Shown here piece by piece: positions 1-3,680 of a stretch of DNA of 64,000 bases; within the stretch, counting starts at the first letter, position 1; each line of letters begins with the position of its first letter. The notes under the pieces were generated by a model, which saw only the letters and a list, made by a program, of their open reading frames with translations, did not search any database and had not been told where the DNA came from. The translations under genes were made by a program, and so were the position numbers. Origin of the DNA: an uncultured delta proteobacterium (GTDB taxonomy: Bacteria; Myxococcota_A; Polyangia; Polyangiales; Polyangiaceae); NCBI GenBank assembly GCA_963850305.1, contig CAWKKR010000008.1, positions 864,001-928,000 on the forward strand. Direction: 5' to 3'.

Positions 1-190
1 CCGACTCGACGCGGGCAGCCTCGCAGAGCGGCTGCAGTGACGGCTTCACGCGCACCCCCATCAAGCACGTCGTCGTGATCGCGACCGCAGCGGCTCCCGC
101 GGGCTCGGCTGCGGACGCCAATGCTCGCGACGGCGAGACGCTCGACGCCGGCGAATCGCGACGCGTGCAGGGCGGGCCTTGCCCCGCGGC

Positions 191-787
191 TCCGCGACCG
201 CTCCCCCGCCGCCTTCGGCGCGCTCGTGTTCGCAAGGGGGTCTTGACCCCCGCGGCTTGCTTCGCAACCGCTCCCCCGCCGCCTTCGGCGCGCTCGTGCT
301 CGCAAGGGGGTCTTGACCCCCGCGGCTCGCTTCGCGACCGCTCCCCCGCCGCCTTCGGCGCGCTCGTGTTCGCAAGGGGGTCTTGACCCCCGCGGCTCGC
401 TTCGCGACCGCTCCCCCGCCGCCTTCGGCGCGCTCGTGTTCGCAAGGGGGTCTTGACCCCCGCGGCTCGCTTCGCGACCGCTCCCCCGCCGCCTTCGGCG
501 GGCTCGTGTTCGCAAGGGGGTCTTGACCCCCGCGGCTCGCTTCGCGACCGCTCCCCCGCCGCCTTCGGCGCGCTCGTGTTCGCAAGGGGGTCTTGACCCC
601 CGCGGCTTGCTTCGCAACCGCTCCCCCGCCGCCTTCGGCGCGCTCGTGTTCGCAAGGGGGTCTTGACCCCCGCGGCTTGCTTCGCAACCGCTCCCCCGCC
701 GCCTTCGGCGGGCTCGTGTTCGCAAGGGGGTCTTGACCCCCGCGGCTTGCTTCGCAACCGCTCCCCCGCCGCCTTCGGCGGGCTCGC
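191..787. repeat. 70-bp tandem array (8 full units + partial ends) of a REP-like multi-hairpin element
   Basis: Unit ctcccccgccgccttcggcgcgctcgtgttcgcaagggggtcttgacccccgcggctYgcttcgcRaccg starts at 201, 271, 341, 411, 481, 551, 621, 691, with a partial unit at 761. Hairpins: gggggtc-tt-gaccccc, cgcc-ttc-ggcg, gcggctYgc-ttc-gcRaccgc. No unique spacers. Confidence 0.95.
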
Positions 788-2097
788 TATGCTCGCGTAG
801 TGCCGCGGCTCTTTGATCCCTCGGGGACGACGCTGCTCGTCGATGCGGAACTACTAGGAAGCTCTACGCCGCATGAGGTTTGATCTCCGACTTCGCAGCC
901 GAGGTCGGTCAAGCGGCGGACGAGGCGTTTGATGGTCTTGCTCTGGTCGCGGCGGTCGAAGTGATGGGGTCCGAGGTCGCGGTAGGGAGTGCCGTCGCGG
1001 AGCATGTAGAAGGCGGCGGTGAGCATCGATGCGGCGACGGCCAAGATCGCCTTCTTTGCTCCACGGCGGGACTTGAGCCGGAGAAACTGGGCTCGAAGGT
1101 AGCTTTCCTTCGTGCGCACCGCGGCCCAGGCGGATGTGACGAGCGTCGTCTTGAGCCAGTTGGCGCTCTTGCGGACGCGCGTCGAGCGACGCTTGCCGGC
1201 GCTCTCGTCGTTGCGGGGGCAGAGGCCGGCCCAGGACACGAGGTGTCCCGCAGACGGGAAGCGCGACATGTCGACGCCGATCTCCGCCACGATCACGTTC
1301 GCGACGATGTCACTCACTCCCGGCATCGTCGTCAGGATCTCGGCGTGCGCCCGGATCGGCTCCAGCGCTTTTCCCGCAGCTGCATCGATCTCGGCCAGGG
1401 CCCCTTCGAGCGAGCCGATGACGCCGAGATGCAGCTTCAGCATGGCTCGGTGATGAGGGGTAACCCGCCCGCGCAGCGCTTCGATCAAGTCGGCCCTCTT
1501 CTTGCGCGCGGTACCGACCGCGAGATCGGCAAGGCGCTCGGGGTCATCTTCTCCGGCGATGAGAGCGGCGAGCATCGCCCGGCCGCTGGTCCCGAGCACG
1601 CTGGACAGGACGCTCGCGACCTTGATGTTCGAGTCCTCGAGCGTTTTCTGTATGCGCAGCGTGTGCTGGGCGATTTCTCGCACGAGCTGCGCGCGCGTTC
1701 GAGTGAGATCGCGCAGCTCCTGGATTCGCGCAGGAGGCACGAAACTGCTGCGGATCAGCCCGTGCGCGAGCAGATCGGCGATCCACGTCGCGTCGTTCAC
1801 GTCGGTCTTGCGCCCTGGCACGTTGCGAATGTGCTGGGCGTTCGCGAGCACGAGTTCGAAGCTCCCTTCGAGCATGTGCCAGACCGGCTTCCAGTACACG
1901 CCGGTGGCCTCCATCGCCACGTGGGTCACGCCGTGCTCCTCGAGCCATTCCGCCAGCTCGAAGAGGCTACGTGTGGTCGTGCCGAACGTTCGGACCTCGC
2001 GCCGCGTTGGTTCGCTGACGCAGCGCACGCAGGCAACGACGCTATCCTTGTGGACGTCGAGGCCCGCGCAACGGGGATACATGACTTCCATGACCAT
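787..2097 (-). CDS. IS110-family (DEDD) transposase/recombinase; probable +1 frameshift near 889, with the true C-terminus EIKPHAA* ending at 864
   Basis: GLDVHK, VAMEATGVYW, GRKTDVNDA (DEDD RuvC-like); SWAGLCPRNDESAG catalytic-Ser region; GGAGG RBS before ATG 2097. Confidence 0.95.
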   Translation of the reverse strand: MVMEVMYPRCAGLDVHKDSVVACVRCVSEPTRREVRTFGTTTRSLFELAEWLEEHGVTHVAMEATGVYWKPVWHMLEGSFELVLANAQHIRNVPGRKTDVNDATWIADLLAHGLIRSSFVPPARIQELRDLTRTRAQLVREIAQHTLRIQKTLEDSNIKVASVLSSVLGTSGRAMLAALIAGEDDPERLADLAVGTARKKRADLIEALRGRVTPHHRAMLKLHLGVIGSLEGALAEIDAAAGKALEPIRAHAEILTTMPGVSDIVANVIVAEIGVDMSRFPSAGHLVSWAGLCPRNDESAGKRRSTRVRKSANWLKTTLVTSAWAAVRTKESYLRAQFLRLKSRRGAKKAILAVAASMLTAAFYMLRDGTPYRDLGPHHFDRRDQSKTIKRLVRRLTDLGCEVGDQTSCGVELPSSSASTSSVVPEGSKSRGTTRA

Positions 2098-2350
2098 CTC
2101 CTCCTTTCGGCGCGTCGAGAGGAGCCCTCGTCATCGAAGTCTACTAGGCGTGCTCCCGGATCTTTCGACCCGCGGTCACAATTCGGGGTGCTCGCAGGGC
2201 TCCGGGTCCATCTACTGAACGGGTTCTTGGCACCAAGTCACGGCCGACCTCCTTCCCGACGCCGCGGCAGGATACACTCGACTCCACCGTCCACGCGACG
2301 ACCCGAGCTTCATGCTTCGGGGAAGGCGCTCTCGCCGATGGGCATCTACT
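851..2350 (-). mobile_element. IS110-family insertion sequence
   Basis: DEDD transposase plus ~250-bp structured upstream non-coding end; no terminal inverted repeats seen. CTACTA core at both inferred junctions (851-856, 2346-2351). Exact ends uncertain by a few bp. Confidence 0.8.
2105..2270 (-). ncRNA. Putative IS110 bridge RNA
   Basis: Minus-strand stems: ggagccct/agggctcc, ggtc/gacc with internal cttgg-tg-ccaag, and long-range ggcgtcgggaaggag/ctcctctcgacgcgcc. Loop segments TCAGTAG and CCTAGTAG match the left flank and right end of the element. Boundaries approximate. Confidence 0.65.
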
Positions 2351-2451
2351 ACTGACGCGGAACTGCTCCTCGCATCGGCGCGAGCGCGGGTGGCCTGAAT
2401 CTAAACCGGACCTTTACGAGCGTCCGGTCCGGATGCCATCGTTGGCGCGCT

Positions 2452-3358
2452 TTGTTCAAGAAGATCCTGCTCGGTATGGGCGCGCTGCTCTCGTTGCTCG
2501 TCGCGGGGGGCGGCGTATTCGTCTACGCCGAGACCTCGGCGTTCGATGCGAGCATGAGTCACGTCTACGACGTGCCGGTGCCGTCGATCTCCGCACTCGG
2601 TCGATCCCGCCGTGCTGGCCCGCGGCCAGCACCTGGTACGCGCCACCGCGGGTTGCGCGGACCACGACTGTCACGGTCCGGACCTCGGCGGCGGCCAGAG
2701 GCTCGACATGGGTCCCATCGGCACGCTCAGCGGGCCCAACATTTCGGAAGGAGGACTCGGCGCGGCCTACACCGACGGCGAGCTCGCGCGCCTCATCCGT
2801 CATGGCATCAAGAAAGACGGCACGTCGCTTCGCTTCATGCCCGCCGAGGAGTTCGACTGGCTACCGGACTCCGACATCCTGGCCGTCGTTTCGTACCTCC
2901 GCTCGGTGCCGCCGGCAGATCATCCCAACGGAACGATCCACCTCGGTGTTCTCGGAAAGGTGCTGGACCGTCTCGACAAGCTTCCGCTGGACGTCGCCCG
3001 GCGCATCGCGGCCGGGCCTCCCGAACTCGCGCCGCCTCCGACGCCCACCGCCGAGTACGGCAAGTTTCTCGCGCGCCTGTGCTCGGGCTGCCACGGCGAG
3101 GGCCTGAGCGGCGGGAAGATCCCGGGCGCGCCGTCGACCATGCCGATTCCGTTGAACCTCACTCCGGATCCGACGGGGCTCGCGGGCTGGACCTATCAGG
3201 ACTTCGATCGCCTACTCACCACCGGCATCCGGAAAAACGGCAAGCAGCTCAACCCATTCATGCCCATCGAGGCCTTCGGCAAGCTCGACGACATCGAGAA
3301 ACACGCCCTCTTCGCTTACCTCCAGACCCTCCCGCCACGGCGGTTCGGGGGCCGCTGA
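2452..3358 (+). CDS. Membrane-anchored di-heme cytochrome c (+1 frameshift near 2592 joins ORF 2452 N-terminus to ORF 2612)
   Basis: N-terminal hydrophobic anchor MFKKILLGMGALLSLLVAGGGVFVY; heme motifs CADHDCH and CSGCH; NI(S/T)/NLTP and MP axial-Met motifs in both halves. Confidence 0.85.
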
Positions 3359-3365
3359 GACGCGA

Positions 3366-3680
3366 ATGAAAGACCCTCGCGACGCCTCGCGACGCGAACT
3401 GCTCCGGTCGACGCTGCTCGGGCTCGGCACGATCGCGGGCCTCGCTGCTTGCAAGAAGCCTCGCGCCGTCGTGTGCGTGAACGGCGGGCTCACCCCGGCG
3501 GACCTCGCAGCGCGCCACAAGCTTGCATACACCGACACGTCGAGCGACCCGATCAAGACCTGCACCACGTGCCAGCAGTTCGTTCCACCAGCGTCGGACG
3601 ATCGATGCGGCCGTTGTAAGGTCCTGAAGGGCGAGATCCACCCGCTCGGGTATTGCAAAGGGTACACGCCGAGGGCGTGA
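3366..3680 (+). CDS. Tat-exported lipoprotein, high-potential iron-sulfur protein (HiPIP)-like
   Basis: SRRELL twin-arginine motif, LAAC lipobox, CTTCQQF...C..C.VLKGEIHPLGYC cysteine pattern. Confidence 0.8.
   Translation: MKDPRDASRRELLRSTLLGLGTIAGLAACKKPRAVVCVNGGLTPADLAARHKLAYTDTSSDPIKTCTTCQQFVPPASDDRCGRCKVLKGEIHPLGYCKGYTPRA

Follow-up and report, generated by a model that had tools for sequence, protein, structure and literature searches.

A long-transposase IS110 element with a predicted opposite-strand bridge RNA and a gene-less repeat probably moved by the same or a related recombinase

An IS110 element in eight genomic copies

The window analyzed here (the whole 64,000-nucleotide stretch) contains an IS110 element on the minus strand at positions 851-2347; an earlier note on this DNA had recognized the element but set its bounds at 842 and 2364. 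The genome carries eight near-identical copies, which differ at a handful of positions among ~1,493, and every one of them starts with AG-ATGCCC and ends with CTAGT-AG. Their left flanks differ and show no kinship apart from TCAGT, which lies directly 5' of the AG in seven of the eight, and seven copies read TCAGT-AG and then ATGCCC. The window copy is atypical in having three additional bases (TAG) at its left junction: the flank TCAGT plus AG (2349-2355, minus strand), which matches the target guide described below, is followed by the extra bases and then by the element start, with the left core dinucleotide AG at 2346-2347 forming the boundary. The eight copies fit conservative insertion at a common dinucleotide core without longer duplication, as do a filled and an empty site of a dispersed repeat (see below), which differ by the repeat plus one AG, and the circle junction predicted in the earlier note (right end, one AG, left end) is consistent with the boundaries of all eight. 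The DNA contigs of four public runs list no circle joint, which has no bearing on whether circles form.

At the left end (2305-2345, minus strand), the first bases AT, the handshake partner of the predicted RNA, are followed by a small hairpin (2325-2336) and the motif GAAGCTC (2305-2311). This motif is inverted relative to GAGCTTC at 858-864 in the right end (851-864, minus strand), where it precedes the donor arm CTAGT (853-857) and the core AG (851-852); the 7-bp inverted motif lies 5 nt from the right core and 34 nt from the left core. Among homologues, the sub-terminal letters GAARY and YTTC are concordant in 80/82, a figure for which two clades may account in part.

Several junctions deserve mention in their own right. 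The left junction carries an extra TAG triplet both in the window copy (2346-2370) and in a homologue that shares its target guide (L247/L249); with the triplet present, the flank matches the donor guide at 4/5 positions, as a half-match of the donor loop would give, and the left flank in the window also has, just upstream, eight bases identical to the left end of the repeat. Head-to-tail arrays, in which a right end, one AG and the next left end follow each other, occur at L043, L045, L053, L061, L066, L070, L072, L221, L030 and L099, and some arrays combine two different elements. At L047, L051 and L058 and at L230 and L233, a copy sits within another copy of its own element, in the left end or the gene end. 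Upstream of the gene in L112 (~430-480), the stretch from the left junction to the target guide has apparently been lost relative to L109, leaving the two AG sites fused.

The recombinase gene (787-2097, minus strand; start at 2097 or 2091) was identified by its open reading frame and domain matches. Both IS110 domains are present (PF01548, E 8e-28; PF02371, E 2e-22), the match to NF033542 scores 283 bits against a cut-off of 140, and the sole PF01548 matches in the genome are the eight IS copies. One extra base near 887 in the window copy makes the frame run on to 787 (436 aa), past the natural stop, which in the other copies lies at 864-866; those seven copies encode 410 aa, and the extra base is absent from contigs of two of the four public DNA runs. 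Because seven natural copies are intact, one of them at G000 C8:787693-788901, the frameshift-repaired enzyme called for in the earlier note is unnecessary. By length the protein falls in the 395-455 aa IS110 subgroup. D12, E61, D97, D100 and S297-A-G are invariant in 14 aligned proteins and, by analogy, would be the catalytic residues of a DEDD RuvC-like domain and a Tnp domain with a catalytic serine, the domain pair of IS110 bridge recombinases. PDB matches were to IS621 and ISCro4 only, over residues 228-371. Beyond the element, on the plus strand of the window (2452-3358), the list of open reading frames holds a cytochrome-c-like frame apparently split into 2452-3369 and 2612-3358, with a possible single-base error or frameshift near 2590.

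The predicted bridge RNA and its guides

Upstream of the gene, the non-coding end of the element is predicted to encode a bridge RNA of about 155 nt (2109-2263, minus strand), its ends being placed by an outer stem and a -10-like box. On the minus strand, every match reported in the earlier note lies where it was placed: TCAGTAG occupies 2349-2355 and 2212-2218, CCTAGTAG occupies 851-858 and 2141-2148, and the closing stem is formed by GGAGCCCT (2196-2203) and AGGGCTCC (2121-2128). The chance expectation in a 260-nt strand is 0.0014 for TCAGTAG and 0.0008 for CCTAGTAG, calculated from genome counts of 68 and 37 (6.26 Mb, both strands, the element's own copies included). The 3' side of loop 1 (2210-2218) holds the target guide TCAGT (2214-2218), the core AG (2212-2213) and the handshake bases AT (2210-2211), and its 5' side (2236-2243) holds a CT facing the AG core together with a weak, complementary right-flank guide for the top strand. 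Loop 2, the donor loop (2121-2203), is closed by the stem above, in which 6/7 pairs show compensatory changes, and bears the donor guide CTAGT plus AG on its 3' side (2141-2147).

In an alignment of 38 hand-picked sequences, the stems of the predicted RNA comprise 15 pairs, with 98% of cells paired and eight pairs changed on both sides. A single-sequence fold of 2095-2355 was no more stable than shuffles (z +1.03); the structural support is therefore that of the alignment. Rfam returned three matches, each below its gathering score, and no notable family. The -10-like box, TATCCT (2269-2274, minus strand), is predicted from homologues: a TA-nnn-T box occurs in 88/106 of them, with a peak 31-33 nt before loop 1, against an expectation of 21.9 (maximum 38) in 500 shuffles, and this suggests an internal promoter that would serve both the RNA and the transposase. 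A scan for sigma-70 consensus promoters and terminators returned 0 sites.

Homologues were collected from genome, metagenome and viral scans and from a search of 41 related genomes, giving 180 loci; nine of these came from viral contigs, which added little information. From 182 element starts extracted, 154 were parsed and 28 were dropped (19 without the loop pattern and nine below 55% identity); the left junction was located in 132 of the parsed elements, the right junction in 125, and the donor segment in 149. Junctions were found by motifs inside the element, independently of the guide, using patterns that demanded AG at both junctions; because parsing required AG, the homologue set cannot by itself prove an AG core.

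The loop-1 segment matched left-flank positions -5 to -1 with an identity of 0.88-0.97, compared with 0.29-0.41 after shuffling (107 elements, 44 guide types), and there was no match excess at -6/-7 in the same 107 elements. The loop-2 segment matched the last five bases of the element with an identity of 0.78-0.98, compared with 0.29-0.73 (120 elements, 50 types). The cross controls were also above their null values (loop 1 versus right end, 0.47 versus 0.38; loop 2 versus left flank, 0.46 versus 0.34). In an unbiased scan of all RNA columns against all DNA positions, performed on 115 distinct RNAs, the top-ranked columns were 2214-2218 against the left flank, 2143-2147 against the right end, 2210-2211 against the first two bases of the element, and 2238 (as the complement) against the right flank. 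A tree-independent test, based on a protein tree of 109 sequences, counted differing positions in pairs without a common branch: the left flank follows its own loop-1 guide at 70/71 such positions and the right end its own loop-2 guide at 53/54. Covariation of the loop segments with target and donor, which the earlier note had proposed as a check, is thus present in the homologues. The tracked length in both loops is exactly 5 nt plus the AG core, and the two RNA bases after the core in loop 1, the handshake, track the first two bases of the element in 9/9 independent changes; comparison of a loop-2 handshake with the right flank gave no signal in the homologue set.

The TAG-type core suggested in the earlier note did not hold, since homologues with different guides differ in the base preceding AG; the core is AG, or AA in a few. 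A 5-base (AGTAG) or 3-base (TAG) core was ruled out, as a change of guide brings changes at positions -1 to -3. Right-hand guides, of which no clear ones had been noticed, are represented by a weak one on the 5' side of loop 1 and none in loop 2. In tree-independent pairs the right flank followed the loop-1 5' segment 36 versus 16 times (p 0.008), and the match of the segment to the flank is 0.40 versus 0.25, in one register only; the other registers were near even (24:19, 23:20, 28:22 and 26:20). The two bases of the 5' segment that face the core are CT in 57/94 types. A loop-2 5' guide covarying with the left end was not found in six registers; the best register (p 0.02) fell on a nearly invariant base and was not accepted. 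In the genome's repeat, 28 distinct right flanks agree with the predicted TCAC at a rate of 0.23, where 0.25 is expected, and six Alicyclobacillus right flanks are also heterogeneous. Sub-clades (L032, L033, L037, L038 and L174; L250, L252 and L254) have a conserved right flank with a matching 5' guide and apparently insert into other insertion sequences; an IS3-like annotation lies beside L252, and the target of the first group is probably IS3.

The covarying segments and aligned stems support the bridge-RNA-like region of the earlier note, in which the target loop comes first and the donor loop second, and they bear on whether this is an ordinary IS621-type bridge RNA whose loops have been mis-assigned, the segments being left guides in their normal position. 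That reading would account for the upstream position and the order of the two loops, which are those of IS621 in the available text of PMC11208160, and it is helped by the inner hairpin of loop 2, which RNAalifold leaves unresolved. We nevertheless consider it very improbable. According to the compensatory stems, each of the two segments immediately precedes the 3' closing strand, which bears out the report of long matches on the 3' side of both loops, whereas the bottom-strand guide of IS621 is on the 5' side (PMC11208160); handshake bases after the core on the same segment are the mark of an IS621 3' guide in the parts of PMC13626964 and PMC11208158 available to us; and a complementary guide was found upstream of the target-guide segment.

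A gene-less repeat with the same ends

The right flank of the window copy, which the earlier note had not seen to be a second mobile element, is a non-autonomous, MITE-like repeat (170-850, minus strand; lower boundary approximate) consisting of an IS-like left end and about nine 70-bp units; this copy has no canonical right end. The dispersed repeat directly follows seven of the eight IS copies. An HMM search for its left end gave 75 entries, of which 70 could be anchored: seven behind the IS, seven in tandem and 56 free. The flanks of the free repeats (55 after removal of one duplicate) read T33 C29 A44 G49 T47 A53 G52, giving the consensus TCAGT-AG, and 49/55 are within two mismatches of it. 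The right ends are TTTC-CTAGT-AG or close variants (36 matches), which is the donor guide of the bridge RNA, and tandem repeats stand head to tail, joined by one AG (seven cases). As in MITEPpu9-type elements, the repeat has no gene, both ends resemble those of the partner IS, it is bounded by the core, and it occupies several genomic sites. The body consists of GC-rich 70-bp units in widely variable number, so that copies range from 95 to over 600 bp, and the first ~60 bases hold an inverted copy of the repeat's own left end. At G000:C8:1022309-1022620, repeats in tandem have an altered core (AC, AT), and the unit that comes after them, the third, has a left end resembling that of the IS rather than that of the repeat.

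Two of the eight IS copies carry an identical 130-bp repeat, placed precisely at the target guide's AG (the 2210-2218 site) with one AG added; the two insertions are probably one event. This filled and empty pair makes the guide DNA itself an insertion site, and the repeat appears, from its ends and flanks, to be moved by the IS recombinase. The repeat is also present in 5/6 genomes of the same genus, where its left end is the same and its flanks are similar; a close transposase was not found with this query in the repeat-bearing genomes, whose assemblies are fragmented, and the first bases of the repeat, TT, match the RNA handshake AT at one position only. Given this distribution and the TT/AT mismatch, an older relative may be responsible for much of the repeat's spread.

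A different origin would make the repeat a REP-like resident that this recombinase does not move and whose left edge the IS targets in the way that IS621 and ISPpu9 target REPs. Seven of the eight IS copies abut the repeat (p 4e-4 for a random choice from the 62 exact sites, of which 18 are repeat edges); pairing of the loop-1 5' guide is better with the first bases of the repeat than with 42/43 free sites; the IS-adjacent repeats vary in length, with a recognizable right end in just 3/7; and the repeat is older in the genus than this IS. Yet the repeat carries the element's own end architecture between two AGs at otherwise unrelated guide-matching sites, and it forms the seven head-to-tail tandems joined by one AG and inserts into the IS itself. 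Targeting of the repeat's edge by the IS is compatible with mobilization of the repeat, so that what we consider unlikely is only that the repeat is not moved by an IS110 element.

The adjacency of IS and repeat could mean that the two travel as one module, as in ISPpu9, or that the IS has inserted repeatedly at resident repeats. IS-adjacent repeats resemble one another more closely than do random sets from their subfamily (94.3% versus 89.5%, p 0.0007, 46 copies), which favors travelling together; 4/5 variant motifs examined are confined to them, and ISPpu9 is described as forming IS+MITE circles in the text available from PMC12288879. Against this, the IS copies differ at few of their ~1,493 positions, whereas the repeats beside them diverge by ~6%, with right ends that differ or are missing, and the same pattern would be yielded by gene conversion after independent insertions or by a recombinase-made left junction with a homology-resolved right side in a resident repeat. 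The recognizable right end in 3/7 and the pairing of the 5' guide with the first bases of the repeat favor targeting. We hold joint travel tentatively, at slightly less than an even chance.

Site polarity and comparison with known systems

Taken as a whole, this is very probably an active-looking, long-transposase (about 400-450 aa) IS110 element with an opposite-strand bridge RNA, the same or a related recombinase moving the repeat. An internal promoter would give rise to the ~155-nt two-loop RNA, which the recombinase would bind. Loop 1 would read the target chiefly through the 5 nt left of the AG core (TCAGT-AG), and weakly through bases on the right side, while loop 2 would read the element's own right end (CTAGT-AG); after strand exchange, the two loop-1 bases 3' of the core would pair with the first two bases of the element. 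Read on the other strand, the core is CT, the 5' guide ends in CT, and the 3' guide consists of 5 nt, the core and 2 handshake nt. Each loop has the IS621 geometry on the other strand, so that, relative to the RNA and the gene, the recombination sites have the inverted orientation, as in IS1111. Judged by its sequence, the element is IS621 loop geometry on the opposite strand, with an IS1111-type guide order and an IS110-type upstream RNA. By analogy, the non-coding strand would be exchanged first, and the left end would be read not by a loop-2 guide but by the handshake together with a sub-terminal repeat to which protein binds. Mobilization of the gene-less repeat, which copied both ends, would also be due to the recombinase or to a relative that has the same guides.

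The earlier note had suspected a distinct architecture. Both guides do lie on the 3' side of their loops, but the arrangement is clade-wide rather than peculiar to this element, and it is the order reported for IS1111. The layout is legible in plasmid homologues at 45-50% identity, ISArsp3 among them (of eight plasmid homologues, L216, L217, L218, L219 and L222 have both matches, L215 has the donor match only, and L220 has none readable), and in 4/4 examined homologues at 32-34% protein identity; some distant homologues have an AA core. A broader reading, whose parts we take jointly and to which we give an even chance, is that the long-transposase IS110 clade, from ISArsp3-like to probably ISPpu9-like elements in several phyla, would form an undescribed third architecture. 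Its members would have an upstream RNA with its own promoter, inverted sites, exchange of the non-coding strand first and ~5 strongly programmable bases per loop; the left end would be read by protein plus handshake, so nearly one-sided a recognition that any DNA with the two ends could be a passenger; and from this a genus-wide RNA-guided MITE family would have arisen, with the guide gene its own target and the MITE able to knock out its helper.

Guide order has hitherto been treated as a mark separating IS1111 from IS110, and all the solved or engineered bridge recombinases that we found belong to the short IS621 clade. If the IS1111 order is combined with an upstream RNA in a large IS110 clade, the position of the RNA and the polarity of the sites evolved separately; guide prediction by the IS621 rule would then mis-assign these elements, and the clade would offer recombinases whose target is short, one-sided and naturally re-programmed (44 guide types among 107 elements). 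In the searched text on IS110, bridge RNA and seekRNA, with subscription papers, figures and bioRxiv supplements outside the search, the IS1111 order is not stated for an upstream-encoded RNA (10.1101/2025.10.25.684509, 10.1101/2025.05.14.653916, PMC12045711, PMC13604230, 10.1101/2024.06.21.599552 and 10.64898/2026.10.21.760802 included), and PMC11208160's Extended Data Fig. 10c, as well as Fig. S12 or the 86 models of 10.64898/2026.10.21.760802, may already show it. No bridge recombinase with an AG core was found in the literature search, in which IS110 combined with an AG dinucleotide led to ISPpu9 papers only.

Like IS621 and ISCro4 (IS622), as presented in the text available to us, the element combines DEDD and Tnp domains with an RNA upstream of the gene that has a target and then a donor loop (PMC11208160), and it has a 2-nt core with 5 nt, core and 2 handshake nt on the 3' side of a loop (PMC11208158, PMC13626964), which is what the IS621 3' guide pairs with (PMC13626964, PMC11208158). 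It differs from IS621 in its coding-strand core (AG here, CT in IS621), in 3'-side guides that match left arms, in 5'-side guides that are weak or undetectable (8-9 nt in IS621), in the predicted internal promoter, and in protein length (410 aa versus 328 aa). The guide layout is not of the IS621 type, while the IS621-type handshake after the core on the 3'-side guide is found in loop 1. Half-match reactions have been reported for IS621 in the portions available of 10.64898/2026.08.31.748434 and 10.64898/2026.08.14.744561; one-sided recognition fits such reactions and need not be a new mechanism.

The available text of PMC11187229 gives the IS1111 order as top-strand match first, with the reverse in IS110 (one IS110 member, ISEc21). 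As in the IS1111 seekRNAs of ISEc11, ISPa11 and ISKpn4 (PMC11187229), a top-strand match, weak here, lies 5' of the bottom-strand match. IS1111 elements have their RNA downstream of the gene and transposases of 330-350 aa; here the RNA is upstream and the protein has 410 aa, and the element has neither their downstream non-coding region nor 7-17 bp sub-terminal repeats close to both ends.

The likeness to ISPpu9 of Pseudomonas putida KT2440, as set out in the text available from PMC12288879, includes AG at both ends and a native internal promoter (predicted here). ISPpu9 has a 43-bp left box with a palindrome and a right box made of a short motif, 5 nt and AG, as here (PMC12288879). The terms LTG, RTG and 'binding loop' have 0 occurrences in the text searched of PMC12288879, and the guide map given here could be used for ISPpu9/MITEPpu9 hitch-hiking and for half-match reactions on a natural 70-copy case. 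MITEPpu9, the precedent for the repeat here, lies behind 5/7 ISPpu9 copies and alone elsewhere and is able to circularize (PMC12288879). The REP that ISPpu9 targets is conserved, as is its right flank (PMC12288879), whereas the right flanks here are unconstrained; and MITEPpu9 has eight copies and carries an sRNA (PMC12288879), whereas the repeat described here has ~70 copies, is built of 70-bp arrays and has inserted into the guide.
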